A stretch of 64,000 nt of DNA from Candidatus Sericytochromatia bacterium. Lineage in GTDB: Bacteria; Cyanobacteriota; Sericytochromatia; S15B-MN24; VGJW01. A program made the translations under genes and the position numbers. Every line of letters begins with the position of its first letter. Position 1 is the first letter of the stretch. A model generated the notes under the pieces. That model did no database searches, was not told where the DNA came from, and saw only the letters and a program-made list of their open reading frames with translations. Positions 3,770 to 53,790 of the stretch are shown here, piece after piece. The stretch spans positions 19,947-83,946 of the forward strand of contig JAYKGV010000016.1 in the NCBI GenBank assembly GCA_035285595.1. Direction: 5' to 3'.

Positions 3770-4049
3770 GAGGGGTACGGAGGCATTGTCTGATGACCCC
3801 TTGGTAGCCAAGGTGTTGACCGCACTCGTGCTGGCCGCGGCCTTGATGCTCGGTGGGCTCGGCACCTGGGCCTGGGTCCATCGTCCACGCTCCGCCCCGG
3901 ACCTGACTACGGGGGGATCCGGTGCCCAGACGTTCCGTCTTGAGGCGCCGGAGGACGGCCCCGGAACCGGCGGCCATCAGGATGGACCGCCAGACCCTTC
4001 GTCGATGAACCGGAACGAGAAGGTCCGTCGGCTTTTCGGCAACATGTAG
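3750..4049 (+). CDS. Putative small membrane protein (99 aa), hypothetical
   Basis: One predicted TM helix (VLTALVLAAALMLGGLGTWAW), moderately high GC3, 20-nt overlap with the amidase 3' end. No homolog recognised. Confidence 0.3.
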   Translation: MTDDSAERGTEALSDDPLVAKVLTALVLAAALMLGGLGTWAWVHRPRSAPDLTTGGSGAQTFRLEAPEDGPGTGGHQDGPPDPSSMNRNEKVRRLFGNM

Positions 4050-4057
4050 CTGTCAGG

Positions 4058-32056: not shown

Positions 32057-33444
32057 GCCCGGTTCTCCTGTTCGTCGGCATCTGGGCCGCTTTGGCCACG
32101 GTGCTTCTGGTCCTGCAGGCACGAAAACTCGGCAGGATGCACGCGGATCGAGCCACGGCGATCGCCTTGTTGGAGCAACTTGGCGATCGCGCCCTTGCCC
32201 ACGCGTGGGATCCTGGTGCCGAGGTCGTCGTTCCCCCTGATTTTCGGCCGGCCGTCGAGACCGTGCGGCGCCTCGGGGATCAAGTTCATGCCTTCCACTT
32301 GCTTAATGTCGAGCAACTGATTGTGGACCGGGCCGAGCTTCAAGCCGTGCTGTTCTCGATGTCGGAGGGCCTTGTCATCTACGACATGGAGCTGACGCCG
32401 GTGCTGACCAATCCGGCCCTTCGGCAGATGGCCCAGCCAGGGATCCACAGGACGATGTTTCTCGAGCCCCACACTATGTTCCACGCCCGATGGGAGGACC
32501 CGGAACAGTTCGAGGGCATCGAGTCGGCGATGCGGCTCGAGCCCACGCTTCCCCGGACGGACATCCTGGCCCTGAAAGAGCCGCGGCAGTGGCTCAAGCG
32601 GTATTCGTCTCCGCTCTTCAATGCCAAGGCCCAGCAGATCGGTCATGTGGTCATCTACCACGATGTCACGGCGGAGCGCCAAGCCGACCAGATGAAGTCC
32701 GAGTTCATCACCAACGCTTCTCACGAATTGCGTACGCCGGTCACCAGCATGAAGCTGTTGCTGGAGAGTGCGGTGGATGTGCTGGACGGGGTGCAATGGC
32801 CAGAAGGAGGGGCTCGTCCCGCTGATCTGGACATGCTGGAGGGATTCCTGCGGGACGCCGTGGCCGAAGGGGACCGGATGCATGTGCTCGTCAATGACTT
32901 GTTGGACGTTTCCAAGTTGTCCTCACAGCGTGCGGATCTCAACCTCCAGCAGGTCGAGGCCTTGCGTGTGATCGAAGAGGCGGCCGCGACGGTGATGCCG
33001 CAGGTGCGTCAGCGGGACCAGCAACTCTCTCTCGACTTGCCCGGCTCGGCACTTCTGGTGGTGGACCGGGTCAGACTGCGCCAAGTGCTGGTCAATCTGT
33101 TAGGAAACGCCGTGAAGTATACCCCGATGGGGGGCGAGATACTGCTGACCCTTGCTCATGGCCCCGAGGGTTGGTTTTTCACCGTCGAAGATAGCGGGAT
33201 CGGCATTCCAGAAGAGGATTTGCCCCACGTGTTCGATCGCTTCTATCGGGTCGGTCGGGACAGGACCCGTGCGGGAGGGCCGGGGGGCTCGGGACTCGGT
33301 CTGTCCATCGTCAAGGCGGCCGTTGAAGCCCACGGGGGCAGGATTCGGGCGGAACGGCGTGAAGAGGGCGGCACGAGGATGCAGTTTCTGCTTCCCGATC
33401 ACCCATCGTCCGTGTCGCCTCTGTCCGGAACATCGAGCCTGTAG
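32053..33444 (+). CDS. Sensor histidine kinase (HisKA + HATPase_c), cognate to upstream regulator
   Basis: H-box TNASHELRTPVTSMKLL, N-box VLVNLLGNAVKYTP, G-boxes EDSGIGIPEEDLPHVFDRFYRV and GGSGLGLSIVKAAVEAHGG. N-terminal TM. GTGA overlap with the regulator gene. Confidence 0.85.
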   Translation: MSPVLLFVGIWAALATVLLVLQARKLGRMHADRATAIALLEQLGDRALAHAWDPGAEVVVPPDFRPAVETVRRLGDQVHAFHLLNVEQLIVDRAELQAVLFSMSEGLVIYDMELTPVLTNPALRQMAQPGIHRTMFLEPHTMFHARWEDPEQFEGIESAMRLEPTLPRTDILALKEPRQWLKRYSSPLFNAKAQQIGHVVIYHDVTAERQADQMKSEFITNASHELRTPVTSMKLLLESAVDVLDGVQWPEGGARPADLDMLEGFLRDAVAEGDRMHVLVNDLLDVSKLSSQRADLNLQQVEALRVIEEAAATVMPQVRQRDQQLSLDLPGSALLVVDRVRLRQVLVNLLGNAVKYTPMGGEILLTLAHGPEGWFFTVEDSGIGIPEEDLPHVFDRFYRVGRDRTRAGGPGGSGLGLSIVKAAVEAHGGRIRAERREEGGTRMQFLLPDHPSSVSPLSGTSSL

Positions 33445-34121
33445 CCGAGGCCGTGCACGGTATGCAGGTACAGGGGGGAAAGTGGCTCGGGCTCGATCCA
33501 CTGCCGAAGTTTCACCACGTAGTTGTCGATGGTCCGGGTGTTTCGGACGGCCTCGCGCCCCCAGACCTCGTCCATGAGTAGCTCCCGGCTGACGACCGAC
33601 CCCCGGTGCCGCCACAGGCATTTCAGCAGCTCGAGGGCCCTCGCGGGTACGGGCTGTCGCTGGCCATCGCGCTGCAGTTCCATCCGGTCGAAGTCGATGA
33701 GGGCAGAACCGAGTCGGAACGGGCCTTGAAGTGGAACCGTGGGCAGTGGTCCTTGCGTGCGTCGCAGGACCGCCTGGATACGCCCCAGGAGCTCGAGCGG
33801 GCTGAAAGGCTTGACGACGTAGTCGTCCGCTTCATAGGTGAATCCGGCTACCCTATCGGCCTCCTGGCCCTTGGCCGTTACCATGATGACGGGCAACCCC
33901 GGAAGTCGTGCCCGAATCCCGCGCAGGACCTCGAAGCCGTTCATACCGGGTAGCATCACGTCCAACAGGACGAGGTCCGGCGGTGCCCCCGGGGCTGTCG
34001 CACAGGAAAGTCCCTCGGGGCCGGTGGTCGCGGCCACGACCCTGTGGCCCTGGCCCTCAAGCAGCTCAATCAAGCCCTGACGGATGGCCCACTCATCCTC
34101 CACGACGACGATGGTCGCCAT
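33399..34121 (-). CDS. OmpR/PhoB-family response regulator (second, convergent pair)
   Basis: MATIVVVEDEWAIRQGLIELL...DLVLLDVMLPGMNGFEV...VIMVTAKGQEADRV is the receiver domain; the C-terminal winged helix ends ...TVHGLGYRL. The 3' end overlaps the other kinase gene by 46 nt. Confidence 0.9.
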   Translation of the reverse strand: MATIVVVEDEWAIRQGLIELLEGQGHRVVAATTGPEGLSCATAPGAPPDLVLLDVMLPGMNGFEVLRGIRARLPGLPVIMVTAKGQEADRVAGFTYEADDYVVKPFSPLELLGRIQAVLRRTQGPLPTVPLQGPFRLGSALIDFDRMELQRDGQRQPVPARALELLKCLWRHRGSVVSRELLMDEVWGREAVRNTRTIDNYVVKLRQWIEPEPLSPLYLHTVHGLGYRLDVPDRGDTDDG

Positions 34122-34122
34122 G

Positions 34123-36069
34123 TCACGCGGCTCCTTCCAGGGGGGGCCAGAGGGGCCAGAGAACCACAAACCGACAGCCTCCCCCCGCGGGCTGCTCCAG
34201 GGTCACGGTGGCGTCGTGTGCGGCCGTGAATTCACGCACCAGTGCCAGCCCGAGGCCGCTGCCTCCTGGCCCATCAGGCGCAACGGCGCGGTAAAAGGGT
34301 TCGAAGACCTTCTTGCGATGCTCAGGGGCAATGCCCGGGCCCTGGTCCTCGATTTCGAGGCGAAGTTGACGAGGAGGGGCACCTACGGGTTGCAGCCGCA
34401 CGGTCACGAGGCGACCGCTGTCCGAGTAGGCGATGGCGTTGCCCAGCAGATTGAGCAAAACTTGCAGGAAGGCGTCACGGTCCGCCCGTAGGGGCGGAAG
34501 CTCCTCCGATGAGGGCTCGAGAACGAGTCGGAAGCCCTTTTCGTCCGCCGCAGGTTGCACGATGGCCAACGCATCCCGGACGGTGACGATGGCCTCGACC
34601 TTCTGAAAGTTGTAGGTTTTGGTACCGCGCTGGATGCGGGCGAAGTCGAGGACCCGGTCGATGAGGCGGCCCAGGCGTTCGCTCTCCAGAATGACGGTGC
34701 GGGCGGCACCGGCGGGATCCCGAGCCAGTCCGGAGGCGAGCAACTCCGCATAGATGCGGATGGCGGTCAGGGGGGTCTTGAGTTCGTGGGAGACACCGGC
34801 CACGAACGAAGCCTGCATTCTCGCGAAGGCCACTTCGCGTCCCAAGGCGCGGGCTATGGCCAGAGTCGCCGCAAGGACCGTGAGGATCAGCACCGCAAGC
34901 AGGGACCAGCTTCGGCGTTGTTGCGTTGCCAGGCGTTCATCCAGCAGGCCAGGAGGCCAGCGTACCGTGACCGAAAGAAAGTCCAGCGGCGCCTGCAGGG
35001 GTGCCGCGGCTAGGTCTGCCTCCGTGAGATCTCCCCAGATCAGATCGGGAACAGCCCTCGGATCCAAGCGCAAACGACGCACGCCATCCCTTGCGAGGTC
35101 TTTTCGCACGCCCTCCACATCCACTTGGAATCCGCCGTAACCTACCTCGGCCCGCCCGACCAGTCCGAACAATCGACGGGAGGCACCTTGGCCGATGACG
35201 ACCCAGGCCGGCGTGCGGAATTCCCGCTCCCGGATGGCGGGCCAAAGCTGATCGGCCACCATGCCTTGTCCGGTCGCCGCATGGGCACGGCTATCGCTGG
35301 TCCTGGCCATGCGCTCCAGATAGTCGAGATAGGCCGAGGCTTCATCTGGTCCCACGGCCGCCTCGATCCGGGGTACGAGGCGACTGCCCGCTCGGGTGTC
35401 GCCCGTCAAACGCACCAGTCGGAGGTCGGCCATCAGGCCATAGGGGATGCCGTCCTCGGATTTGTCCGTGCCTGCCAAGCGCGCCACTGCTCGATAGAGG
35501 GCGATGGCTTCCGCGGTTCGTCCCCCGCGTTCCGCCAGCCGGCCCATTCCGAAGGCTGCCTTGGCCCGGATGCCCGGATTCGCCGACAGCAACAGAACAC
35601 GTCGGTAGGCAGCTTCGGCGGACGCCACGTCCCGGCGGGCGAACTCGGCTGACAGGCCTTCCTGGAGGGCTTGGGCGACCTGTTCTGGAGTCGTCTGGGC
35701 CAGAGGGAGAGGCAGATCCGCCATTTTTCCAGGTGGTGCCAACGGTTGGGTTCCACCGAGTCGATATTCTCGATCGATCCAGAAGGGCTGGGTGATCCAG
35801 GGTCGTTCCTCGGCAAGATAAGGCCTGCCACGGCCTTGGCGTCCAAGGGGAGGCGAGAGCCGGGAGAGCCGGCGCCCCAGCTGGTCTCCGAGGTCGGCGG
35901 CCAAGGCCGATGCCTGACTCTGGCGGGCTTCGGCCATCGAGCGGATGAGCAAAGTGCGTTCCCGTTCCAGCTCGCGGATTTCCGCCATGACGAGAAGAAT
36001 CGTTGGCAACCCCACGAGCAGGGCAAGCAGTCCGAGGACCTTCCCGGATGGCTTGGCAAGCTGTCTCAA
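34123..36069 (-). CDS. Sensor histidine kinase with large periplasmic TPR-like sensor domain
   Basis: Signal/TM start MRQLAKPSGKVLGLLALLVGLPTILLV, a ~350-aa extracytoplasmic region, then a second TM. H-box VAGVSHELKTPLTAIRIY, N-box VLLNLLGNAIAYS, G-boxes DQGPGIAPEHRKKVFEPFYR and GGSGLGLALVRE. Confidence 0.85.
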   Translation of the reverse strand: MRQLAKPSGKVLGLLALLVGLPTILLVMAEIRELERERTLLIRSMAEARQSQASALAADLGDQLGRRLSRLSPPLGRQGRGRPYLAEERPWITQPFWIDREYRLGGTQPLAPPGKMADLPLPLAQTTPEQVAQALQEGLSAEFARRDVASAEAAYRRVLLLSANPGIRAKAAFGMGRLAERGGRTAEAIALYRAVARLAGTDKSEDGIPYGLMADLRLVRLTGDTRAGSRLVPRIEAAVGPDEASAYLDYLERMARTSDSRAHAATGQGMVADQLWPAIREREFRTPAWVVIGQGASRRLFGLVGRAEVGYGGFQVDVEGVRKDLARDGVRRLRLDPRAVPDLIWGDLTEADLAAAPLQAPLDFLSVTVRWPPGLLDERLATQQRRSWSLLAVLILTVLAATLAIARALGREVAFARMQASFVAGVSHELKTPLTAIRIYAELLASGLARDPAGAARTVILESERLGRLIDRVLDFARIQRGTKTYNFQKVEAIVTVRDALAIVQPAADEKGFRLVLEPSSEELPPLRADRDAFLQVLLNLLGNAIAYSDSGRLVTVRLQPVGAPPRQLRLEIEDQGPGIAPEHRKKVFEPFYRAVAPDGPGGSGLGLALVREFTAAHDATVTLEQPAGGGCRFVVLWPLWPPLEGAA

Positions 36070-37364
36070 GGCAAACCAGCCGTTCCGAGGCCCTTTTGGG
36101 CCAGAACCTTGAGCGGATTGCCCGAAGCATCGCGGCCGTCGGGGAAGAACTCGAGGAGTTGCTGCCAGGCCTGACGGGCTCCTGCAACGTCTCCTCGTGC
36201 CTCCCGCCGCCGCGCAAGCAAGGCGAGCGCTCGACCGCCCGCGCGTGTGCCATCCGGCCAGAGGTCATTGCGGCGATCGTCGGTCAGGATGTCTTCCAGA
36301 AGGCGTTCCCCATCTTCAAGAACGCTCGCGGCTCCTGTCAGCGCGCGGCCATCCAGGTTGCTGCGAGGATGTTCGCGCGCCAACTCCCGCAATGCGATCG
36401 CAGCCTCTTGTCGATCCTTGCCGTCGAGCCGGCTTTCCAACAGGGTCAGCCTGCGGGCCGCCCGTCGCCAAGTCTCGGCCGACAGGCCGCCGGCCATCGA
36501 ACGTGCCAGGCTCTCCAGGTCGAGACGGAGAGTGCCAGCCGACAATTCCGCATCGGCCAGTGCCTGCTGCAAAAGCTGGGTCGCGGCATCCGACCGGCCC
36601 AGCTCCCAAAGGCGCTGGCCTTGCTGCTTCCATAACTTGGCTCTGGTGGTGGCCGGCAGCCCACCGAGGCCCGGGGTTCTCGCTTCCAAAGCACGGAAGG
36701 CCTGGAGTCCTTCGTCCGCCGTGCATCGGGTGCCAAGCTCCAGGACAAGCTCTGCCATCGTGCCCGGTGGCATGGTCTCTCCGAATGCCACCACGAGTGC
36801 CAACTGCACCGAGGTCGCCCTGCGTGCCTGTCCGGCCTTGAGCAAGCGTCGACCGGCGGCATTCAGCCGTCGAGCGGCCTCCTGTCGTGCGAAAAGATCC
36901 ACCTGGGTCCGGAACGCGATTCGATCCTCCTCGGGTAGCAGGGCTTCCCAGCCTTGTCCCGGCCGCGTGGGTGACAAACCCCGCAGGTCCCCACCGAAAT
37001 CTTCGGAAGTACCGAGTCCCCCGGTCCGGACCCAGCCCGTCGCGGCCCGCAGGTGGGCGGAGCGTTCGTTTAATGCGGTGCGATAGGCGGCCCTCGCCGC
37101 CTCCTCCTGTCCGAGGACGGCGTAGTGGTCGCCCAGGTCCGCAGCGGCATCGGCCAGAACCTGTCCTGTGGCTTCCGGGATAAGGACTTCCAATCGGGAA
37201 ATGGCTCCCGGGAGATCGCCTTCGGCCACGGCCAGCAGCCGTGCTTCCGCAAGCTGACGCATCGGATGGTTCGGCTGCGGCTTTCCGACGGCCGGCAGAC
37301 CCGCCAGCAAAACGAGCCCGATCAGCCACCAAGGTAAATGGCTGCGCGGCGGAGTAAGGCTCAC
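36066..37364 (-). CDS. Secreted/periplasmic TPR-like protein (432 aa), hypothetical; co-transcribed upstream of the two-component system
   Basis: N-terminal signal peptide (LPWWLIGLVLLAGLPAVG), Ala/Leu/Arg-rich helical repeats. The stop overlaps the kinase start (ATGA). Confidence 0.55.
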   Translation of the reverse strand: MSLTPPRSHLPWWLIGLVLLAGLPAVGKPQPNHPMRQLAEARLLAVAEGDLPGAISRLEVLIPEATGQVLADAAADLGDHYAVLGQEEAARAAYRTALNERSAHLRAATGWVRTGGLGTSEDFGGDLRGLSPTRPGQGWEALLPEEDRIAFRTQVDLFARQEAARRLNAAGRRLLKAGQARRATSVQLALVVAFGETMPPGTMAELVLELGTRCTADEGLQAFRALEARTPGLGGLPATTRAKLWKQQGQRLWELGRSDAATQLLQQALADAELSAGTLRLDLESLARSMAGGLSAETWRRAARRLTLLESRLDGKDRQEAAIALRELAREHPRSNLDGRALTGAASVLEDGERLLEDILTDDRRNDLWPDGTRAGGRALALLARRREARGDVAGARQAWQQLLEFFPDGRDASGNPLKVLAQKGLGTAGLP

Positions 37365-37383: not shown

Positions 37384-38061
37384 TCAGGGGTCCATGAACC
37401 GGCGGATGCGCATCACCATAAGGTCGTTTTCGTCTGAAAAAGGGGCGGCCTGGAGCACGGAGATCATCTTGGACTTGGAGGTGTTGGGGAGGTTGATCAA
37501 GTCTCGATCCGTGGCGACCCTCATGGCCGCCCGGACACCCGGCAAACCCGCATCGTCGACGGCCGGAATCTCTTCGAACCAACCGCCCCTGAGCGCGAAG
37601 CGCGCAAGATCCAAACCTGGCCCCTGATCGCCCATGGCCCGAAAAAGCTGCGCCCTCTTTCCGACGCGGGCCAGACTCTCCGACAACACCCCATCCTCAC
37701 CCTTGCCCGCAGCGGGTGCCATGACGAGTTGGATGCCTTCTCGGTCGGGATTCCCGCCATTTCGTCCCAGCAGGCCCGAGATGAGACGGGCCCGTTGCTC
37801 GGGGCTGGCGGCGTCGATGAGATCGGGGCGCTTGCGAACGAGAGATTTGTACCCCGAAGGACCCGTACCCCCTATTTCCTGGTCGAGTTGCCGCTGGAGC
37901 TGCTGGCGAAGATCGTCACGAGTGGACAGCTTGACCCGATCTCGCGGAAGTGGGGCGGGCGCGGGAGCTGAGGCGGCAGCCGGAATCGGCCCGGCGCCGC
38001 GGCGCAGGAAAGGGATGGCAGACAGCCAGTTGGCAAGCGAAGGCAATGCTGGCATCGGCAT
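37384..38061 (-). CDS. Hypothetical protein (225 aa), Ala/Pro-rich N-terminus
   Basis: ATG overlaps the stop of the upstream repeat-protein gene (TGATG). No motif recognised. Confidence 0.4.
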   Translation of the reverse strand: MPMPALPSLANWLSAIPFLRRGAGPIPAAASAPAPAPLPRDRVKLSTRDDLRQQLQRQLDQEIGGTGPSGYKSLVRKRPDLIDAASPEQRARLISGLLGRNGGNPDREGIQLVMAPAAGKGEDGVLSESLARVGKRAQLFRAMGDQGPGLDLARFALRGGWFEEIPAVDDAGLPGVRAAMRVATDRDLINLPNTSKSKMISVLQAAPFSDENDLMVMRIRRFMDP

Positions 38062-39290
38062 CAGCCCGGGATCCGTGCGGCCATCCGCAGCAGTGCTGCG
38101 GCGTCGGGATGGGTCATCACGGTGTGAACCTTGTGGGCGGTGGTCCGGGAAAGTTCGAGCAGGCCACCGCCGGGTGTCGCCAGGACCTGGGAAACCTTCG
38201 AGACCCGCATGGTCCGATTCTCGGTCAAGAAGCCCGCCACCACTTTCTGGTCGATGACCCGGACGTGGCGGGTGCTCCGTGCGACTTCGCGCAGGGCCGG
38301 GGGGGCGGCGAGGGTACGCACGGACCTAGCGCCTGCCGTCACGCGCACGGTCCGGGTCGTGGCATGAGCCCCCTGGGTGACCGTTTGTGCAGCGGTTGGT
38401 GCGGCCGCAGCCACCTTGCGCGCCTTGGCTGCCTGCTGCATGGCCTGATTGACGGGTGCGGCCGTGGCGGCGAGTCGTGCCTTCTGGGCGAGTTCGCCAA
38501 CTTCTTGGGCTTTCTGGGCGGCCAGGGTGACCTTGCGTGCCTTGGCTGCCTGCTGCATGGCCTGATTGACGGGTGCGGCCGTGGCGGCGAGTCGTGCCTT
38601 CTGGGCGAGTTCGCCGACTTCTTGGGCTTTCTGGGCGGCCAGGGTGACCTTGCGTGCCTTGGCTGCCTGCTGCATGGCCTGATTGACGGGTGCGGCCGTG
38701 GCGGCGAGTCGTGCCTTCTGGGCGATTTCACCGACCTCCTGGGCTTTCTGGGCTGCGGTTGCGGCCTGCTTGGCCTTCCGGGCAACCTGTCCAACCTGCT
38801 GGGCGGCTTGCCCGGTGCGGGCGGCGCCCGTTGCCGCCTGAGATGCTCCGATAGCTCCACTCGCAGGCTTGAGGGCGCCTGAACCCAACATCATGGACCC
38901 GATCTCGAACATGCCTCGCCCGATCGCACGACCGGGTCGGCCTTCGCGGATGGCCTCCGCATAAGGTTCGGTGAAGGCGCGGACGACCTCTCCGGGCCGT
39001 GTCACCAAGGCGATGGGAAGCATGGCCAGACCCTTCACCGTCTCGATGGGGTGCGTGATCATATGGAAAGTGCCGCCCACCATGTCGCCAGCGCCTTGGA
39101 GCGCACCCACGACCACGTCCCCCACGAAGCCTCCGAGACCCTGGGGCTCTGCCGGCGGGCGTCTGCGGCGTGCCGTTGCGTCAATCTCATCCTGAGGTGC
39201 CGGACGCACGCCGTCCTGCGTCCGGTACACCCGACCGGCTTGCGGGGTCGGGCCCAGGACCTGGTTTAGGTCGCGCACGAGCTTGGGCAT
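38061..39290 (-). CDS. Hypothetical protein (409 aa) containing three near-identical 39-aa tandem repeats
   Basis: A central block (KVTLAAQKAQEVGELAQKARLAATAAPVNQAMQQAAKAR) is present 3 times. N-terminal ~150 aa are Gly-rich (GGFVGDVVVGALQGAGDMVGGTFHMITHP). It is the first gene of an operon that ends with the kinase/regulator pair. Confidence 0.6.
   Translation of the reverse strand: MPKLVRDLNQVLGPTPQAGRVYRTQDGVRPAPQDEIDATARRRRPPAEPQGLGGFVGDVVVGALQGAGDMVGGTFHMITHPIETVKGLAMLPIALVTRPGEVVRAFTEPYAEAIREGRPGRAIGRGMFEIGSMMLGSGALKPASGAIGASQAATGAARTGQAAQQVGQVARKAKQAATAAQKAQEVGEIAQKARLAATAAPVNQAMQQAAKARKVTLAAQKAQEVGELAQKARLAATAAPVNQAMQQAAKARKVTLAAQKAQEVGELAQKARLAATAAPVNQAMQQAAKARKVAAAAPTAAQTVTQGAHATTRTVRVTAGARSVRTLAAPPALREVARSTRHVRVIDQKVVAGFLTENRTMRVSKVSQVLATPGGGLLELSRTTAHKVHTVMTHPDAAALLRMAARIPG
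38370..38760. repeat. Tandem direct repeat, 117-bp unit x ~3.3, near-identical at nucleotide level, in-frame within the 38061-39290 CDS
   Basis: Plus-strand unit ...cttggctgcctgctgcatggcctgattgacgggtgcggccgtggcggcgagtcgtgccttctgggcgagttcgcc(a/g)acttcttgggctttctgggcggccagggtgaccttgcgtgc... recurs with only 1-3 substitutions per copy. Confidence 0.85.
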
Positions 39291-39523: not shown

Positions 39524-39685
39524 ATGTCGCTGATCACCCGCCTTGTCCGTGAAGAAGAAGGCCAGAGCATGGTCGAGTACGGCATCATCGTGGCTGTCAT
39601 CGCGGCCGTCTGCATCGGCGGCTACAAGGCAGTGGGCGCTCAGGTCAACAAGTCGATCGACACCCTCATCAAGAACATGAAGTAG
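39524..39685 (+). CDS. flp: Flp family type IVb pilin (53 aa; not in the supplied ORF track, which lists only ORFs of at least 60 aa)
   Basis: MSLITRLVREEEGQSMVEYGIIVAVIAAVCIGGYKAVGAQVNKSIDTLIKNMK* carries the hallmark Flp motif G/QSMVEYGII (prepilin peptidase site G|XXXXEY) followed by a hydrophobic stretch. Strong RBS. Directly upstream of the prepilin peptidase and Tad genes. Confidence 0.85.
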   Translation: MSLITRLVREEEGQSMVEYGIIVAVIAAVCIGGYKAVGAQVNKSIDTLIKNMK

Positions 39686-39756: not shown

Positions 39757-40365
39757 GTGCTAGCCGTGATGCCCTTCTTCGTATCGGACCCCGTCCGCTG
39801 GACCGTTGTGCCGGTCTTGATCGTGGCTGTCGTGACCGACGTGCGTAGCCAGCGCATCTACAACTGGTTGACCTTTCCGGCCATGGGGCTCGCGGTCCTG
39901 GTTCGGGTGGGCTGGGGCTGGTGGACCGCGGGGGGGGCGCAAGCCGTGGAAGTCCTGGGGGATGTCCTGGGAGGATGGTTGGTCTTTCCCTTGGCTTTCC
40001 TGTTGATTGACGCGGTCTATGCGGGAAGGTGGGGACAGCTCAAGGGCATACGGGCCGGCGACATCAAATTGATGGCTGCGGCTGGAGCCTGGATAGGCCT
40101 GTGGCCCGCCCTGTCCGCCATTCTCGATACCGCACTCGTCGGCGGCGTGCTCAGTTTCTTGTGGGCCGCGCTGCACGGGTCCTTGGGGGGGGTCCTGCGC
40201 CAGGTCAGAGGATTCTTCGTGGCGATGGGCGCAGGCTTTCGCCAGCCTGCTTCCATGGTGGGGACCTCGCGTGCACCCCTCTTGCCTTACGCCCTTTCCA
40301 TCGCATTGGGGACCGTGGCAGCTTTGGCGTGGCCTCCCATCTGGCAATGGGGTGGCCAGGCATGA
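39757..40365 (+). CDS. cpaA: Prepilin peptidase CpaA/TadV (A24 family)
   Basis: Polytopic membrane protein VVPVLIVAVVTDVRSQRIYNWLTFPAMGLAVLV...GAGDIKLMAAAGAWIG with the conserved catalytic Asp pair. GTG start. Confidence 0.85.
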   Translation: MLAVMPFFVSDPVRWTVVPVLIVAVVTDVRSQRIYNWLTFPAMGLAVLVRVGWGWWTAGGAQAVEVLGDVLGGWLVFPLAFLLIDAVYAGRWGQLKGIRAGDIKLMAAAGAWIGLWPALSAILDTALVGGVLSFLWAALHGSLGGVLRQVRGFFVAMGAGFRQPASMVGTSRAPLLPYALSIALGTVAALAWPPIWQWGGQA

Positions 40366-41267
40366 AAAAGTCGAGGTCCGCGCCGAAGGGCCAGGCGATG
40401 GTGGAATTCGCCTTGGTGTTGCCCCTTCTGCTGCTGCTGACCTATGGCACGATCGAGATGGGTCTCGCGGTGCAGCGGCGCCTCGTCCTGACTGGAACCG
40501 CCTTCGTGGCGGCGCGCGTGGCGGCTGTTCACGGCGAGACGGCCGAAGCGGGGGTGCGTCGCGTGCTGGAACTCCACGCCGCCGACTCGGGTGCCGGTTG
40601 GATGTCCCGGGCCCGTGCCGACCTCGACCGAAGCTCGAGGTCCTTGACCCGGGTGACCGTGAGTTGCAGCGAGCAAGGCTTCACCTCCGCGCTTTCCGGA
40701 GCGATGGTCGCGACGGGTGGTCGACCGCCGGTCGCGCAGGGATGGGCGGTTTCGGCGGTCGTGCGTCCCGAGTTCGTTCCCGGGCGTCTGCGTCGAGGTG
40801 CGGCTCAGGCGCCCACGGATCTGCAAGTGGACTATCGAGTGTCCTTGCCTGGACTGGATCGCCTCAAAGGATTGGGAGAGGTGGTTCGCAAGTTGCCCGG
40901 CGGGGGCTCTGGCACCGAACTGGCCCTTGCGGCCGACCCGACGGTACAGGCCACGCTGGCCAATCCGATGGACCGCAACGGTTCTGTCTCCCCCAGCAAG
41001 CGCTACGTGGCACCCGAGAATGAGGATCGCGAGTTCCGCCAAGCGGGCAAGCTCGCCGACGGGCTTTCCCAGCTCGACAAAGTAGTCAAGGCCTTTTATG
41101 CCTCGTATGTCGTGGCAGCCACGGTACCTGGTTCGACCGGGGTCGATGCGACCTTGGCCGCCGTGGCCAAGGGCTTCGCGCAGGTGGACGGCACCCTCTC
41201 GTTGGCTGGAACGGCCGAGCGCTTCGACAAGGCCCAGAAAGCGTTCTTCGCGGGGACCGTCCGGTGA
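40362..41267 (+). CDS. tadE: TadE-like pseudopilin/pilus assembly protein
   Basis: The N-terminus MKKSRSAPKGQAMVEFALVLPLLLLLTYGTIEMG is the TadE/TadG signature (G|QAMVEF processed by CpaA). ATG overlaps the cpaA stop (ATGA). Confidence 0.75.
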   Translation: MKKSRSAPKGQAMVEFALVLPLLLLLTYGTIEMGLAVQRRLVLTGTAFVAARVAAVHGETAEAGVRRVLELHAADSGAGWMSRARADLDRSSRSLTRVTVSCSEQGFTSALSGAMVATGGRPPVAQGWAVSAVVRPEFVPGRLRRGAAQAPTDLQVDYRVSLPGLDRLKGLGEVVRKLPGGGSGTELALAADPTVQATLANPMDRNGSVSPSKRYVAPENEDREFRQAGKLADGLSQLDKVVKAFYASYVVAATVPGSTGVDATLAAVAKGFAQVDGTLSLAGTAERFDKAQKAFFAGTVR

Positions 41268-42136
41268 GGGACCGTCGCTCGCCCCGAGGGCAGTCGCTGG
41301 TTTATTTCACTCTGGTTCTGGCCGTGATCGTGGGTGTGCTTTACGCGACCTATGATCTGGCCCGGCTGACGACGGCCAAGATGCAGGCCCAGACGGCCGT
41401 GGATGCCGCGGCACTCGCCGGGACGGCCGTAAAGGTATCGATTCATCACACCCGGTCACTGGCCTATGCGGCGATGACGGGCCAGGCCACGCTTGCGCGG
41501 TTGAAATTCGCCAAGGCTCTTGCCGTCGTGGGCTCCAAACCGCCGTTGCCCGGGCAGCCTTATCTCGCTGCCGAAGAGTTCGACAAGTGGGTCGGCGAGG
41601 CCAATGCCCACGTGGCCCGATTGCGACGCCTCAGGGCGGGGCTCGTGGCTTACAACTCCTGGGTGGCCCGCGAGGGGCCGGCCGTCGTGGCTGATGCCGC
41701 TCGGCTTGCCTTCAATGCCAATGTTTCGGGCATGAACGCCGCGATGGGTGAAGGCACCGCCGCCAACGCCCGCAACCTCTCCCTCCTCGCCGGTCCCAGA
41801 AACTTGCCTGAAAACGGCGGTCAATTCGCTGCCGGGCGGTTCGTCGGGGGCGTAAACTACCCGGGTGAGGCGGCAGGTGCGGGAGGGGCCGCTGGCAAGA
41901 CTCTGGTCTGGGCCGAGCCCGTGTACCGTCCGCTGGGATCGGCGTTGCTCGGTGCGTCGCATCCTCTGGTGCTGCCTTCCGTCGCTGCGGCAGGCCTCGT
42001 CCCCGCGGGTGAGCTCAAGGCCGCGGAGCCTGGTTCGGGCGAGGCGGGTGCAGGAGGGGTCGGGCTGCGCTGGTACACCCCCCGCCTTCTTCAGGTGGGG
42101 GGGCTCAACGGATATCCACATGAACTGCTGCACTGA
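41264..42136 (+). CDS. TadG/TadE-like pilus assembly protein
   Basis: The N-terminus PRGQSLVYFTLVLAVIVGVLYATYDLARL...AQTAVDAAALAG is TadG-like (G|QSLVYF). GTGA overlap with the upstream gene. Confidence 0.7.
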   Translation: MRDRRSPRGQSLVYFTLVLAVIVGVLYATYDLARLTTAKMQAQTAVDAAALAGTAVKVSIHHTRSLAYAAMTGQATLARLKFAKALAVVGSKPPLPGQPYLAAEEFDKWVGEANAHVARLRRLRAGLVAYNSWVAREGPAVVADAARLAFNANVSGMNAAMGEGTAANARNLSLLAGPRNLPENGGQFAAGRFVGGVNYPGEAAGAGGAAGKTLVWAEPVYRPLGSALLGASHPLVLPSVAAAGLVPAGELKAAEPGSGEAGAGGVGLRWYTPRLLQVGGLNGYPHELLH

Positions 42137-42776
42137 TCGCAGCTCGCCCCGCGGCCAGGCGCTCGTCGAGATGGCGATCGTGCTGCCCGTCGGCGTGCTG
42201 TTGCTGCTGGTGGTGGGTTATCTCGGTAAGGGATTGCTGGAGCGCCAGCAGGTCGTGATGGCCGCCCGGCATGCGGCAAGGACCGCGGCTCATCAGGCCA
42301 TGGCGGGCTCTGCGGCCAAGATCACCGGTGCCGGTGTCCTGCAGTCGGCGACTGGCATGGCGGGTCGGACAGCTGCCGTCCGTGACCTGATTCCGGAAGG
42401 GATGGCCAAGGCCCCCGATTGGTCAAGCGCCGTCGCAGGCACCGCCACGACGCACTTGAGGCCCCGCCCGCTCGGGCCCGGAGCGATGGGTTACGTCGCC
42501 ACTCAGGTACAGCAGGTCGAGGGTCGAGCCATGACCTTCGGACTGGGATTCATCCTTTATGGAGCCAAGGCCGAGAGCCGCATGCGCCTGCTGGAGCCTC
42601 TGCGTCGCCAGGTGCAGGGCGTGGCTCGCCAGGTCGGTCGTCCACCGTCCGGGTTGGCGGCCCCCCTTGCCGTGTCAGCGCAGGCTTTCATGCCGGGTGA
42701 ACTGCCGGTTCACCATCCGCAGGTGGGGCTCCTTGAGCAGAACCGCTGGATCCGCGAGATTGTGGAGGGCCCATGA
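42120..42776 (+). CDS. Third TadE-like pseudopilin
   Basis: MNCCTDRSSPRGQALVEMAIVLPVGVLLLLVVGYLGKGLL is a TadE motif (G|QALVEMAIVLP). The chosen ATG overlaps the upstream gene by 17 nt. Confidence 0.65.
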   Translation: MNCCTDRSSPRGQALVEMAIVLPVGVLLLLVVGYLGKGLLERQQVVMAARHAARTAAHQAMAGSAAKITGAGVLQSATGMAGRTAAVRDLIPEGMAKAPDWSSAVAGTATTHLRPRPLGPGAMGYVATQVQQVEGRAMTFGLGFILYGAKAESRMRLLEPLRRQVQGVARQVGRPPSGLAAPLAVSAQAFMPGELPVHHPQVGLLEQNRWIREIVEGP

Positions 42777-43126
42777 CCGGGATCGTGCTCCTCGCGGCCT
42801 TGACGGGACAGCCGGAGATTCCCGGATGTACCGGGGTGACGGTGGGGGGAAAGGGGATAGCCCGCTGGGCTCGATTGTCGGGTCCTCCGGCCACGGCTCT
42901 CGACCGGTTCGATGCATGTTGGCGACGGGCAGGTTGGTCTGCCGAAGAAGAACCCGCGATTCTGGACGGCGGAGACGCGCCAGGCCGTTTGCGGTTGTGG
43001 CGCAGGGGGCCGTGGAGGGCCACGATCTTCGAGGCTCGGGACGCAGGCGGGCGTGCGCTATGCTTGGTCTTGATGGATCGTGGGTCCCCCGGTGGGGCCG
43101 TCCGACCTGCCCCGGGAGGGCCCTGA
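42773..43126 (+). CDS. Hypothetical small protein (117 aa) inside tad locus
   Basis: ATGA overlap with the upstream gene; the stop lies 3 nt before cpaB. No motif recognised. Confidence 0.4.
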   Translation: MTGIVLLAALTGQPEIPGCTGVTVGGKGIARWARLSGPPATALDRFDACWRRAGWSAEEEPAILDGGDAPGRLRLWRRGPWRATIFEARDAGGRALCLVLMDRGSPGGAVRPAPGGP

Positions 43127-43129
43127 ACG

Positions 43130-44179
43130 ATGTCTGATCTGAGATCGCGCTTGCGTCGCCCCGACGAGGGTCCTGTTGCCGACCCGTCGCCTGCGGCGTC
43201 GGGAAAGTCCTCGAGACGTGCCAAGCCTTCCTCCCGCCGTGGCGGAAAAGGTGTCCGGGAAGGTGGCCAAGCAGGAATCCTAGGTGGTTTCGACGTCAAT
43301 CGACGCCTGTTGCTGGCCGCAGGAGGTCTCGCGGGCCTCGCCGCCTTGCTCGCCGTGACCTATCTGTCCGATGCGTCGGACCGCATCGCGGGGAGCGGAG
43401 CCAAGATCAAGGTCTGGGTGGTGGCCCGCGATTTGCCTGCTCGACATGAGTTGCAGGAGGGTGATCTCGAGGAGCGCGAGGTGCCGGCCCTCTATCTTCC
43501 GGCCTCGCACGTTCCGGCGGGGCGCGCCATGGTCGGGCGGGTCACGACCACGCCCCTCTGGCCTGGCGAGGTTCTGGTCGAGGGACGGGCCGTGATTGCG
43601 GGGGCTGCAACCGGCGTCTCACCTCGTATCGGTGCGGGCGAGCGGGGTTTCGTCTATGTGCCGGATGGCTTGCAGGACGTGCCTCTGGTGCGGCCGGACG
43701 ATCGGGTGGACTTGGTCGCGACGGTGCCTGAGGCAGAGGGAGGCGGTCGGTTGGTATCTCGACCGGTTGTTCATGCCGCACGGGTTATCGGCGTCGGGGA
43801 TCGCTTCTCGACCGAGGCGACGGAGTCGGTCACAGGACCCAATGGGGCCGTCACCCTGGCGGTGCCCCAGGGGCGGGTGCAGTTGCTGGCGGTCCTGGCC
43901 GAGGCCGGTCGCCTGCACTTCATCCTCAGGTCTCCGGGAGACGTGGCGACCGGTGGTCAGCCGGACATCCGCGAGCTTGAGCGACTCGTATTGGGACAGG
44001 TGGCACGTCCTGCCGTCACCAAGCCACTGCCCCCGCGCACCGTGGTCAAGGTTGTCAGGGGGGCCGCCCCACCGCCTCGGATCGTGAGAATTCAGGCGCC
44101 ACCCGCAAAGCCTCCTGTTCGCAGGGTCCCCCAGGTCGAGATCTATAACGGGGCTTCTCGCCAAGGCGGAGGCAACTGA
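43130..44179 (+). CDS. cpaB: Flp pilus assembly protein CpaB/RcpC (SAF-domain protein)
   Basis: N-terminal TM (LLLAAGGLAGLAALLAV), then IKVWVVARDLPARHELQEGDLEEREVPALYLPASHVP...GERGFVYVPDG...GDRVDLVATV, typical of the CpaB SAF/beta-clip fold. RBS gggaggg. Confidence 0.8.
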   Translation: MSDLRSRLRRPDEGPVADPSPAASGKSSRRAKPSSRRGGKGVREGGQAGILGGFDVNRRLLLAAGGLAGLAALLAVTYLSDASDRIAGSGAKIKVWVVARDLPARHELQEGDLEEREVPALYLPASHVPAGRAMVGRVTTTPLWPGEVLVEGRAVIAGAATGVSPRIGAGERGFVYVPDGLQDVPLVRPDDRVDLVATVPEAEGGGRLVSRPVVHAARVIGVGDRFSTEATESVTGPNGAVTLAVPQGRVQLLAVLAEAGRLHFILRSPGDVATGGQPDIRELERLVLGQVARPAVTKPLPPRTVVKVVRGAAPPPRIVRIQAPPAKPPVRRVPQVEIYNGASRQGGGN

Positions 44180-44215
44180 GCAGGGCTGGCGGGGGTATAG
44201 AGGGGGGACGCAGCC

Positions 44216-45241
44216 ATGAGCCGACGCCATCTTGTCTTTCTTCTCGCCCTAGTTGCCGCCTTGGGCCCGTGGCCTTCCCGGTGGCCCGGGGGGGCCCCTC
44301 CGGCATGGGCCAGCGTAGCCGATTTGACCGTCCGCCAGGGGCATACTACGGTCTTCCGCGTGCCCCGAGGTGCAACCCGAGTGGCCATCGGCGACTCCGC
44401 GGTCGCGGCCGTGACGCTGATTCAAGATGGAACCGGCGAGAATCTCCTGATCGAAGGTCGAAAGCCGGGGCTGACCAATTTCCTGGTCTGGACGGCCGCC
44501 AGTCGCCAACCCTCCAACTATCGCCTCGAAGTGTTGTCCGGCCGCCGCACCGAGACCGTCGTGATTCGTGTTCAAGTCTGGGAGCTGTTGAACGGGAATG
44601 ACAGCCAGACGGGTATCCGCTGGTCCGAGGGCTTGGCGTTCCAGGAGGCGCCGCCTACCGCTCCCTTTGCCCTTGGTCTTCCGGTCCGGGCCGGCGTCCT
44701 TGAGGCTCGTCTCCAGGCCCTGGCTCAAGCGAAGCGAGCCCAGCTCGAAGCTTCGCCAACCCTCCTTGCCCTCTCGGGTCAGGAGAGCAAGTTCCTGTCG
44801 GGTGGTGAGTTGCCTGTGGTGGTCCAGACTCCCAACACCGTCGCAGTGGATTGGAAGCCCTTCGGGGTGGGCCTCAAGGTGACGCCCGTGGTCGAGGGAG
44901 AGGAAATCCTCCTGCGGATCAAGCCTGAGGTCTCCAGCATCGACAGGTTGAATGGGGTCCAGACCGGCAACTTCAATATCCCGGCCATTGCCACCCGCAT
45001 GGCCGAGACCCAGGTGGCTGTCAGGCCAGGGCAGGAGATTGTCCTGGCCGGCCTTAAGCGCCGTACGTTGCGTACGGTGGTTTCACGTGTGCCCCTTCTC
45101 GGGTGGGTGCCTTTATTGGGTGCGTTTTTCACGTCGACCCAGCAGGAGGAAGAAGAGGGCGAGCTGGTGTTCCTCGTGACCCCGACGCTTTTCAAGGAAG
45201 GCGAGGCCATGCCCGAGAAAGGCCATGGCAAGGCGCGATGA
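44216..45241 (+). CDS. cpaC: Secretin CpaC/RcpA (type II/III secretion system secretin family), short form
   Basis: Signal peptide. The C-terminal half ...FLSGGELPVVVQTPNTVAVDWKPFGVGLKVTPVV...ETQVAVRPGQEIVLAGL...VPLLGWVPLLGAFF is the canonical secretin domain. Confidence 0.8.
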   Translation: MSRRHLVFLLALVAALGPWPSRWPGGAPPAWASVADLTVRQGHTTVFRVPRGATRVAIGDSAVAAVTLIQDGTGENLLIEGRKPGLTNFLVWTAASRQPSNYRLEVLSGRRTETVVIRVQVWELLNGNDSQTGIRWSEGLAFQEAPPTAPFALGLPVRAGVLEARLQALAQAKRAQLEASPTLLALSGQESKFLSGGELPVVVQTPNTVAVDWKPFGVGLKVTPVVEGEEILLRIKPEVSSIDRLNGVQTGNFNIPAIATRMAETQVAVRPGQEIVLAGLKRRTLRTVVSRVPLLGWVPLLGAFFTSTQQEEEEGELVFLVTPTLFKEGEAMPEKGHGKAR

Positions 45242-47334
45242 CTGCGCCGCGCCTCACGGTGCTGCTGTCCGCCCGTGGTGGGACCGGTCGCAGCATTCTT
45301 GCGGGAAACCTGGCCCTCGCCTTGTTGCGTCGGGGGCGTCAGGCCGTCTGGTTGATCGATGGCGACGAGGTCTCTGGCGGTTTCCAGGCAGAGGCCTTCG
45401 ATTTGCAGGCGGGCCACGCGCACTGGGGGGAGTCCCTGCGTCACGGGACGCCCTTTTCCGAGACCCTCGTGCGTCACGGCTCGGGTTTGGACCTGTTGCC
45501 GGCACCGCCCATGGGGTGGGGCCAAACCTTGGACCCGGCTGCTCTTGCGGCCCGCCAGCGCGAGTGTGCCGCAGCTCACGTGGTACTGGATCTTACAGGT
45601 CCGGGCCTGCTGGCCGAGTCTGCCCTTGGCTGGCTGGATCTTGCTTCTTCCGTGGTGCTCGTGGTGCCGCCGGACATCCCGTCCCTGAGCGCGACACGGA
45701 ATCTGCTCGACCATTTGAGGTCCCAGCATGTGGCGCTTGATCGCGTCTTGCTGGTCGTCAATCGTGTGGGCGTCGTGCAGGATGTCACTCCGCGCGACGT
45801 GGCGTTCGAACTGGGGCTTGACCTCGTGGCCGCAGTGCCGTTCGACCCTGCCGTCGTGGCCTCGCTCAACCGTGGCGTCCCCTTATTGGCTCCGGCGTCG
45901 CCCCCGGCGACCGCCTTCGGCAAGGCCGTGCTCGGGGTGGCCCAGGCCGTGCAGGCTTCTCCGGTCGTGGACTGGGTTCCGCTGGCCGCCCGGCTTGCGC
46001 GACGCGCGGAGGGGACAACCCCATCCACGTCGGGAGATTCCACGGCCCTCGTCCCCATTCAGGTCGCGTGGAGCGAGGGGCACGCCGAGGTACGGCAGCG
46101 CCTCCACCGTTTGCTGGTGGAAGAACTCAAGCGATTGGAGCTTGGGCTGGAGCGTCTCGTGGATTCCCAGCATCGCCTGGAGGTCAGGCGGCAAGTCCAG
46201 CGTACGGTGGCCGAGCTCATAGAGGACATGCCCGAGACGGCGGCGATGGGTCGAGACGAGCGCACGGCCCTCGCGCGTGACGTGACGGACGAGGCCGTGG
46301 GGTATGGTCCGTTGGAGCGTTATCTGGCGGATCCGGCCATCAGCGAGATCATGGTCAACGGTCCCTCGCGCATCTTCGTCGAGCGGGAAGGTCGCCTGCA
46401 GTTGATGCCCGACTCCTTCACGGACGAGACGCAATTGCGGGTGGTGATCGATCGTATCGTGGCCCCGCTGGGTCGAAGAGTCGACGAGTCGAGCCCGATG
46501 TGCGATGCCCGATTGCCCGATGGTAGTCGCGTGAATGTCATCATCCCGCCCTTGGCTCTGCGCGGTGCCACGATCACCATCCGCAAATTCCCGCACCGCA
46601 GGATGACCATGGACCATTTGGTCCAGTTTGGTTCCTTGACTCCCGAGATGGCCGATTTCCTGCGACAGTGCGTGCGTGCCCGGTTGAACGTGTTCATCAG
46701 CGGGGGAACGGGCTCGGGCAAGACGACCCTGCTCAACGTGCTGTCGTCTTTCATTCCGGAAGAAGAGCGCATCGTGACCATCGAGGATGCCGCCGAGTTG
46801 CAGCTGGCCCAGACCCATGTGATTCCGCTCGAGGCCCGGCCGCCCAATCTTGAGGGTGTGGGGGCCGTGCCCATCAGGGATCTGGTCCGTAACTCGCTGC
46901 GCATGCGACCGGATCGGATCGTGGTGGGTGAGGTCAGAGGCGGCGAGGCGCTCGACATGCTGCAGGCGATGAACACGGGACATGATGGTTCTCTGGCCAC
47001 CGGCCACGCCAACTCCCCCCGGGACGCCATGGCCCGCATCGAGACCATGGTGCTGATGGCGGGGATGGATCTTCCTGTAAGGGCCATCCGCGAGCAGATC
47101 GCCAGCGCCCTGCATGTCGTCGTGCAGGTCTCACGGCTTTCGGATGGGTCGCGCAAGATCACCCGCATCACCGAAGTCACGGGCATGGAGGGTGAGACCC
47201 TGACCTTGCAGGATCTCTATTCGTTCGAGCAGACGGGAGTGGATGCCAAGGGCCGTGTCATGGGAGCCTTCCGTGCCAGTGGCCTGAGGCCCCGTTTCGC
47301 CGAGGTCTTCGAACGGGCCGGAGTCGGGCACTGA
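45238..47334 (+). CDS. cpaF: Fused CpaE/TadZ-like (ParA/MinD-type) domain + CpaF/TadA pilus-assembly ATPase in one reading frame (698 aa)
   Basis: N-terminal ~280 aa: LTVLLSARGGTGRSILAGNLALALLRRGRQAVWLIDGDEV... is a deviant-Walker-A MinD/ParA fold, as in CpaE. From ~aa 300: LKRLELGLERLVD...RIFVEREGRL...VFISGGTGSGKTTLLNVLSSFIPEEERIVTIEDAAELQL...RMRPDRIVVGEVRGGEALDMLQAMNTGHDGSLATGHANS are the TadA/VirB11 Walker A/B, Asp and His boxes. There is no stop codon between the two parts. ATG overlaps the cpaC stop (ATGA). Confidence 0.8.
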   Translation: MTAPRLTVLLSARGGTGRSILAGNLALALLRRGRQAVWLIDGDEVSGGFQAEAFDLQAGHAHWGESLRHGTPFSETLVRHGSGLDLLPAPPMGWGQTLDPAALAARQRECAAAHVVLDLTGPGLLAESALGWLDLASSVVLVVPPDIPSLSATRNLLDHLRSQHVALDRVLLVVNRVGVVQDVTPRDVAFELGLDLVAAVPFDPAVVASLNRGVPLLAPASPPATAFGKAVLGVAQAVQASPVVDWVPLAARLARRAEGTTPSTSGDSTALVPIQVAWSEGHAEVRQRLHRLLVEELKRLELGLERLVDSQHRLEVRRQVQRTVAELIEDMPETAAMGRDERTALARDVTDEAVGYGPLERYLADPAISEIMVNGPSRIFVEREGRLQLMPDSFTDETQLRVVIDRIVAPLGRRVDESSPMCDARLPDGSRVNVIIPPLALRGATITIRKFPHRRMTMDHLVQFGSLTPEMADFLRQCVRARLNVFISGGTGSGKTTLLNVLSSFIPEEERIVTIEDAAELQLAQTHVIPLEARPPNLEGVGAVPIRDLVRNSLRMRPDRIVVGEVRGGEALDMLQAMNTGHDGSLATGHANSPRDAMARIETMVLMAGMDLPVRAIREQIASALHVVVQVSRLSDGSRKITRITEVTGMEGETLTLQDLYSFEQTGVDAKGRVMGAFRASGLRPRFAEVFERAGVGH

Positions 47335-53732: not shown

Positions 53733-53790
53733 CGGGGGGTTCCTTTCGGGGGATACGAGCTTTGTCTTCATCATACCCAAGGTGGAGGCC

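Follow-up and report, generated by a model that had tools for sequence, protein, structure and literature searches.

A probable recent in-frame tandem amplification in the predicted helical spacer of a three-part Sericytochromatia protein encoded beside a Flp/Tad pilus locus

Introduction

Near-perfect tandem repeats within bacterial genes raise the question of whether they are genuine and recent products of duplication, and of what their gain or loss would mean for the encoded protein. Here this question is posed by a stretch of DNA of 64,000 nucleotides (the window) from a Candidatus Sericytochromatia bacterium, taken from contig JAYKGV010000016.1 of GenBank assembly GCA_035285595.1, a metagenome-assembled genome (MAG) built from short reads. 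Within the window a gene for a protein of 409 amino acids (the host gene, 38061-39290, minus strand) carries about three copies of a 117-bp unit. The tract is best explained as a genuine, recent and lineage-specific in-frame tandem amplification of about 3 × 39 codons in the fast-evolving helical spacer of a three-part protein, a reading to which a probability of roughly 0.7 is assigned.

The host gene is supported by its open reading frame (ORF) and translation, by homology, by syntenic orthologues and by a third-position GC content (GC3) of 0.75. Its product is 100% identical to NCBI 'hypothetical protein VKO21_03695' (P0001) from a Candidatus Sericytochromatia MAG. An earlier annotation of the window made from the sequence itself (the original prediction) had recognized the gene and its repeat and had overlooked that the gene lies on the minus strand. 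An overlapping plus-strand ORF at 37950-38882 was rejected as spurious, the minus-strand gene being preferred on homology, synteny and GC3 alike.

The repeat tract

Two repeat searches agree in placing a tandem array inside the host gene, as the original prediction had stated. Tandem Repeats Finder reports an array at 38413-38753 with a period of 117, 2.9 copies, 97% matches, 0 indels and a score of 640, by far the strongest tandem array of the window, and a separate repeat search recovered three in-register copies at 38401-38751. Together with self-offset identity, these searches define a tract at 38403-38754 (minus strand) of 2.9-3.0 × 117 bp. In the register that runs from KVTL to KAR, copy 1 occupies 38652-38768 (aa 175-213), copy 2 occupies 38535-38651 (aa 214-252) and copy 3 occupies 38418-38534 (aa 253-291), all read on the minus strand. 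Only two synonymous differences in 117 nt separate copy 3 from copy 2. Between copy 1 and copy 2 there are 12 differences, and these are confined to the first 43 nt, the other 74 nt being identical; copy 1 begins QAATA where copies 2 and 3 begin KVTLA. A separation of 1-3 nt among three copies, as originally proposed, therefore describes copies 2 and 3 and fails for copy 1; the tract consists of two full copies and one nearly full copy.

The unit of 117 bp corresponds to 39 codons and is divisible by 3, and so the repeat is in frame and a change in copy number alters the length of the protein without causing a frameshift. A unit not divisible by 3, the feature of phase-variable on/off contingency loci, is not found here.

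Support for the repeat in independent assemblies

The locus recurs in the Logan assemblies of SRR19514069, SRR19514071 and SRR19514072, where 4-7 kb align to the window with 0-36 mismatches, and an identical 225-aa protein is encoded downstream in all three. Each of the three contigs stops inside the host gene at the repeat, so that the repeat is crossed by a single assembly; trouble with assembly at this position had been anticipated. The first base of two of the three contigs is window position 38451, inside copy 3 and 34 nt short of its end; both then continue into unique sequence. With the assembly word length taken to be k = 31 (an assumed value), this start lies about one assembly word upstream of a G specific to copy 3, where unique words would begin. 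Since the copy with the G variant runs into unique sequence, the copy with the A variant must precede another copy. A single-copy locus with an A/G single-nucleotide polymorphism (SNP) would give a bubble that rejoins, and the contig pattern differs from this; at least two repeat copies must therefore exist in independent read data.

The 5′ side of the repeat was not recovered from other assemblies, as look-ups with the host protein and the prepilin peptidase came back empty and the Flp pilin returned only a sister MAG. The DNA pattern of the copy junction was not found in JGI metagenome contigs or in GTDB species representatives.

Evolution of the spacer among orthologues

Orthologues of the host gene are present at the same locus in L001, L010-L019 and L025-L027, which belong to Sericytochromatia/Tanganyikabacteria lineages. 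Their identity to the window protein is 81-84% in the N-terminal domain (N-domain), 70% in the C-terminal domain (C-domain) and about 45% in the spacer between them. The length and net charge of the spacer vary little: 188 aa and +21 in the window, 174 aa and +22 in both L001 and L010, and 171 aa and +22 in L013. The L025 orthologue (394 aa) has a longer AAQ/AAK tract and, by the same landmarks, a spacer of about 180 aa.

The spacers of the orthologues consist of degenerate AAQ/AAK triplets and a degenerate 39-nt (13-aa) repeat, and the 'AQKxRLAS..VNQ..QQARKA' unit, present three times in the window, occurs in them only once. The duplication is thus lineage-specific, which upholds the earlier view that it is recent. 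The window spacer lacks the A/Q tract of about 75 aa seen in its orthologues and has two extra 39-aa copies (78 aa). Length variation of a similar kind is encountered elsewhere in the family: population alleles from Lake Tanganyika encode 388 versus 385 aa and are one AAQ unit apart, and in other family members, too, the N-domain is closely followed by near-identical repeats. As judged from these sequences, the linker is a repeat-driven spacer with fast turnover and conserved bulk properties.

Two further observations concern spacer repeats. The proteins P0007 (472 aa, L023 969-2387) and L028 (517 aa, 2889-4487) are 100% identical except for a 45-aa (AAKAAQAAE)n block, a difference that is either strain-level repeat variation or assembly collapse. 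In addition, 117 nt equals 3 × 39 nt, the spacer of L001 at 10520-10663 has a degenerate 39-nt period, and the period of 3.25 residues in the predicted window helix (described below) equals 13/4; together these tentatively hint at an older 13-residue periodicity under the 39-aa unit.

Architecture of the host protein

The AlphaFold2 model of the host protein, a monomer computed from a 43-row alignment, places all three repeat copies within a single continuous alpha-helix at aa 160-295 (38406-38813, minus strand), with a predicted local distance difference test score (pLDDT) of 78-92. This agrees with the proposal of a helical spacer between two distinct domains. The composition of the predicted helix is 35% Ala, 17% Gln and 15% Lys plus Arg, and it contains 21 Lys and Arg residues versus 6 Asp and Glu. 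In Fourier analysis its hydrophobic periodicity peaks at 3.25 with no comparable peak near 3.5, where three identical 39-aa copies permit peaks only on harmonics of 39. The term 'coiled-coil-like', which had been applied to the spacer, does not suit a strongly basic helix with this periodicity.

The protein begins with a conserved peptide, MPKLVRDLNQVLGP (aa 1-14; 39249-39290, minus strand), which is identical or changed at one position (Q10E) in the aligned orthologues, is modelled as a helix at aa 4-11 and is followed by a variable leader of about 35 aa. No signal peptide is evident in the host protein, and no clear transmembrane segment was recognized, the maximum 19-residue Kyte-Doolittle mean being 1.22.

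The N-domain (aa 50-145; 38856-39143, minus strand) consists of four helices at 52-79, 81-97, 99-115 and 119-139 in the AlphaFold2 model, with pLDDT above 90 over aa 50-140; modelled alone, it has the same four helices at a pLDDT of 85. It is marked by the motifs GFVGD..G, HPIET, TRPG, FTEPY and GRPGxAIGRG, and profile searching places it within a 'pre-toxin-type' module that has no curated family. Between the helix and the C-terminus, aa 298-364 are poorly predicted, with pLDDT below 50 over most of their length. The clade-specific C-terminal region (aa 329-409, beginning APPALREV; 38064-38306, minus strand) is weakly predicted as a small alpha/beta domain with pLDDT of 42-75. A search of a set of 5.8 billion proteins with the C-domain gave no match, and a local C-domain profile matches close orthologues only.

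Searches of the host protein and its 225-aa partner against Pfam, NCBIfam, PADLOC and PHROGs returned nothing meaningful. A sequence search of the PDB with the full host protein met designed helical repeats only, by way of the Ala-rich helix, and Foldseek with the full-length model against the PDB gave nothing under E = 1. The 'Gly-rich N-terminal domain' of the original prediction is indeed a distinct domain; what had been missed is that it is an uncurated module, widespread in polymorphic toxins.

The N-domain as a toxin-associated module

The distribution of the N-domain was assessed with a profile built from aa 1-147 of three family members and searched against 1.84 billion cluster representatives (50% identity), which gave 241 proteins at E ≤ 1e-3 and 72 at E ≤ 1e-10. 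In the best matches the domain stands at the extreme N-terminus of proteins from Sericytochromatia- and Melainabacteria-like MAGs, where long A/K-rich regions come after it, often together with PG_binding_1 or LysM domains. Within this peptidoglycan-binding branch, the gene lies directly downstream of a FUR-family regulator on two unrelated contigs (L004 3200-10502; L021/L022 7216-11795), and UBA8530 contains three tandem, paralogue-like genes (901, 402 and 786 aa) that each encode PG_binding_1.

Among the weaker matches, the N-domain follows WXG100 in 40 of the 77 proteins scanned, and in a few others it follows Tox-PAAR-like, eCIS_core or Peptidase_S8 domains; in one case it is located in the cargo region of a SpvB-TcdB-Rhs protein. 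The C-terminal tails of the same 77 proteins contain more than 15 toxin families, the types including TNT, EndoU, CdiA_C, HopA1, Ntox46/50, WHH, RNase A-like, Gln_amidase, colicin-DNase, ART, Tox-REase-5, MPTase4 and RelA_SpoT. A protein of the cultured species Fredinandcohnia onubensis, for example, consists of a helical N-terminus, the N-domain and TNT, and in a protein of Pleionea sp. the N-domain is followed by PT-HINT.

The module appears to lack a curated description. When 35 N-domain sequences were scanned against family profiles at E ≤ 10, only scattered chance matches were obtained. The module matched no Pfam or NCBIfam model, the curated PT-TG, PT-HINT and PT-VENN families included, and what NCBIfam recognizes in N-domain proteins is limited to their WXG100 and toxin flanks. 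Sequence and fold searches of the PDB with the N-domain gave no match. The N-domain profile aligns with residues 64-124 of PDB 7vmc_B (CdiA-CT EC869) at a non-significant E = 0.3 over about 60 residues, an alignment that includes a G-x-x-x-G...D-x-V...P-x-E-T-L pattern; the structure of CdiA-CT EC869 (PDB 7VMC) is described in PMC9071432. The PEST toxins of mycobacterial prophages (PMC10654092) also contain a 'linker domain'; as far as a tblastn search of 50,697 phage records, which gave no match, can show, the N-domain is a different one. One hit on an unannotated Bacillus plasmid was uninformative. Overall, the N-domain may represent an undescribed family, a module probably borrowed from, or shared with, polymorphic toxins.

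Operon and Flp/Tad neighbourhood

The host gene is the first of five tightly packed minus-strand genes, separated in turn by a 1-nt overlap, a 19-nt gap, a 4-nt overlap and a 1-nt gap. The second gene is the ORF for the 225-aa partner (37384-38061), whose start overlaps the host stop by 1 nt (or lies 6 nt later at Met3) and whose product belongs to no known family. It is followed by genes for a 432-aa TPR protein (36066-37364) with weak TPR matches and an N-terminal hydrophobic signal or anchor, a 648-aa sensor histidine kinase (34123-36069) with a TPR-containing sensor region, HisKA and HATPase_c, and a 240-aa OmpR-type response regulator (33399-34121), assigned through the Pfam domains Response_reg and Trans_reg_C on the matching L007 gene, mapped to the window. 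A scan for consensus promoters and terminators found 0 promoter-like sites and 3 weak terminator-like matches, fewer than in shuffled sequence; the only one on the minus strand is weak and lies inside the 225-aa ORF. That the host gene heads an operon with TPR, kinase and OmpR genes beside a pilus locus had been recognized, although the 225-aa ORF between the host and TPR genes had been left out. The signalling or adhesion-associated role suggested for the host protein has its basis in gene context only.

The gene set is shared with relatives to differing degrees. The partner has a 66% identical orthologue in L001, and a 36% identical homologue (E = 8e-33) follows P0154, a distant family member, in L020. 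The TPR protein has a 64% orthologue in L001 and a 36% homologue in L023, and the kinase has a 43% full-length homologue in L023. Orthologous lineages have the same layout, with flp-tad transcribed away from the host gene on one side and the partner, TPR, kinase and regulator genes downstream of it on the other, and the gene for P0007 (L023), with about 50% N-domain identity, is directly followed by the TPR (36%) and kinase (43%) homologues. On this comparison of gene order, the link between the host gene and the signalling genes extends past the close orthologues. In the case of the distant member P0004, the gene that follows is HEAT-like and unrelated to the 225-aa partner.

On the plus strand, divergent from the host gene and separated from it by 233 bp, a 53-aa Flp pilin is encoded at 39524-39685 (Pfam Flp_Fap, 6.9e-08), and the rest of the Flp/Tad pilus locus extends over 39757-48200. 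According to a Pfam scan, it contains genes for a prepilin peptidase, three TadE/TadG-like proteins, RcpC/CpaB, a secretin, an ATPase and TadB; a ParA-like ATPase region and the TadA/CpaF ATPase read together as one 743-aa stretch. The locus is a complete Flp/Tad system with the same gene order in L001 and L010. The Flp pilin is 100% identical between the window and GCA_035285865.1 (L024 4001-4162), where the adjacent host, partner and TPR proteins are 57-66% identical; this suggests unusually strong constraint or recent exchange.

A second two-component pair is located at 31340-33444 on the plus strand and comprises a 238-aa OmpR-type regulator and a 463-aa PAS histidine kinase that converge on the 3′ end of the operon. 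About 45 nt at its end are shared with the first regulator gene; this arrangement is kept in L001, L007 and L010. Other repeats in the window include a second in-frame tandem repeat at 53425-53523 (24 nt × 4.1 copies, 93% matches), which encodes NFTMPMGN four times within a minus-strand 487-aa ORF (52440-53903) with a possible lipoprotein-like N-terminus, and GC-rich 15/30-nt tandem repeats at 4564-4651 (2-4 copies, 67-81% matches).

Proposed mechanism and comparison with known systems

The copies would have arisen by slipped-strand mispairing or by unequal recombination between direct repeats. Each copy would add 39 helical residues, or about 5.9 nm at 0.15 nm per residue, and a net charge of +4. 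Selection may act on the bulk length and charge of the spacer and not on its sequence, in which case the two extra copies would substitute for the A/Q tract of the sister lineages. With less certainty, the host protein may be a non-enzymatic extended tether or scaffold that acts with the 225-aa partner, the TPR protein and the pair formed by the TPR-sensor kinase and the OmpR regulator. In polymorphic toxins the N-domain sits between the delivery domain and the toxin; in the host protein it would not be part of a toxin.

Variation in length by in-frame tandem repeats, of the variable number of tandem repeats (VNTR) type, occurs in extended helical or linker regions of the streptococcal alpha C and M-like proteins. 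The host ORF resembles these in having long, near-identical in-frame direct repeats that keep the frame and likely arise by slippage or unequal recombination. It differs in that its repeat lies in a basic Ala/Gln-rich helix and not in a wall-spanning or fibrillar adhesin, and surface or antigenic signs were not seen. A second parallel is domain II of TolA, a long Ala/Lys-rich helical spacer that runs from a membrane-proximal N-domain to a C-terminal globular domain. The host protein likewise joins two domains by a low-complexity Ala-rich helix of more than 100 residues, whose character and not sequence is kept. Unlike TolA, however, it has no detected transmembrane anchor and no TolQ/R/B/Pal context, its neighbours being tad and two-component genes; its spacer has much Gln, few acidic residues and a strongly positive net charge, and its terminal domains are unrelated to those of TolA. 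As a predicted long uninterrupted helix it is also reminiscent of single alpha-helix (SAH) domains and coiled-coil spacers, yet it lacks the E/K/R alternation of the former (6 acidic versus 21 basic residues) and the 3.5-residue heptad signal of a canonical coiled coil (its peak being at 3.25).

Pre-toxin modules of polymorphic toxin systems, of the PT-TG, PT-HINT and PT-VENN class, were reportedly described by Zhang and colleagues in 2012. The N-domain family is like these in that it sits after delivery modules and before many unrelated toxin domains, whereas the host N-domain is itself at the N-terminal end, neither preceded by a delivery domain nor followed by a recognizable toxin, and matched no curated family. 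The N-terminal, non-nuclease part of CdiA-CT proteins has a role in cell entry. It too is a helical module directly upstream of a toxin domain, and it accounts for the weak profile match of about 60 residues; as that match is non-significant and no structural match was found, membership is not supported.

Alternative explanations

The array could be an artefact, in that the genome holds one copy (or another number) and the three copies stem from the assembly of the short-read MAG, in which strain variants were wrongly joined or the repeat was expanded or collapsed. The locus does come from a MAG, three assemblies of the same population fail to pass the region, and the 45-aa block by which otherwise identical proteins of a relative differ possibly reflects assembly collapse. 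This explanation is nevertheless rather unlikely, as the start of two Logan contigs before the copy-3 G gives the A variant another downstream context, unlike that of a single-copy SNP, copy 1 has its own diverged 5′ third, and the sites that tell the copies apart are at most 118 nt from one another, a distance that long k-mers should resolve. The copy number may also be subject to active contingency-type variation, in which frequent changes within the population tune the reach of the protein or diversify an exposed epitope, as in surface proteins that bear repeats. Such variation would fit the near-identity of copies 2 and 3 (two synonymous sites), the in-frame length variants among near-identical alleles of relatives (388/385 and 472/517 aa) and the recurrence of repeats just after the N-domain across the family. 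It is possible but doubtful: copy-number variants of this locus did not turn up, the JGI metagenome contigs and GTDB representatives lacked the junction pattern, the similar length and charge of the spacer across lineages suggest constraint over diversification, and nothing places the host protein on the cell surface.

Other readings concern the function of the whole protein. The host protein might be a polymorphic toxin, with the N-domain as pre-toxin or translocation module, the C-terminal ~80 aa as a novel toxin, the 225-aa ORF as its immunity gene and perhaps delivery by a Tad-like route. The N-domain is indeed shared across different C-terminal toxins and follows WXG100, Tox-PAAR-like, eCIS_core and Rhs modules; moreover, the C-terminus differs in the more distant members P0004 and P0154, a small uncharacterized ORF overlaps the host stop codon, and the non-significant alignment with the N-terminal part of CdiA-CT EC869 (E = 0.3) points the same way. 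Against this, no trafficking domain and no toxin family were detected in the host protein with Pfam, NCBIfam or PADLOC, and the host locus shows no co-varying immunity gene. At 70% identity among orthologues, the C-domain is conserved to the same degree as the rest of the protein, and the 36% partner homologue follows P0154, whose C-terminus is unrelated, so that the partner does not co-vary with the C-terminus as a cognate immunity protein would. With the gene embedded in a conserved operon of TPR, kinase and regulator genes, and with peptidoglycan-binding and LysM domains instead of toxins in the closest subfamily, a toxin is unlikely. A molecular ruler, by which repeat number would set the length of the adjacent Flp/Tad pilus, is highly improbable. 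Four lineages keep the host gene divergent from flp, and a long helical, repeat-bearing middle lies between terminal domains; these four syntenic lineages, however, are close relatives, in which synteny is weak evidence, a paralogue-type member in L020 is not beside a tad locus, and Pfam and NCBIfam revealed no homology to a Tad/Cpa/Rcp component or a known ruler. To our knowledge, no ruler has been described for Tad systems.

Several points also weigh against a genuine amplification in the helical spacer of a tether-like protein. The copy number of three comes from one short-read MAG assembly, and the single helix comes from a monomer AlphaFold2 model in which low-complexity Ala-rich sequence is easily modelled as helical. 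The constancy of spacer length is drawn from 4-5 related lineages with an 8% spread. Neutrality competes with selection on copy number at this locus. The tether or scaffold role would follow from gene context only, with no localization signal found, and the toxin association of the N-domain leaves a toxin-like role possible.

Conclusions

The repeat is of an ordinary and well-known kind, and the protein family is mildly interesting and undescribed. As one more in-frame tandem duplication in a low-complexity helical linker, the repeat serves mainly to signal uncertainty in the assembly and as a possible strain marker. A more far-reaching scenario can be framed, in which the N-domain is a membrane-interaction or translocation module of at least four toxin delivery routes that has been re-used, free of toxin, at the head of an exported tether; the basic helix built from repeats would set the reach of this tether, which would feed a TPR-sensor two-component system controlling, or served by, the Tad machine. 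This scenario is a long shot, but if it were true, gain and loss of repeats would tune physical distance in an envelope signalling device.

A spacer that keeps its length and charge (+21/+22) under sequence turnover would be a natural example of selection on bulk properties. A profile of the N-domain family would help toxin discovery, as the domain marks type VII (WXG100), PAAR-like (type VI-linked), extracellular contractile injection system (eCIS) and Rhs/Tc toxins. Its toxin-free use in a conserved operon that includes a TPR-sensor kinase, beside a Tad locus, provides a lead in an uncultured lineage with almost no experimental biology.

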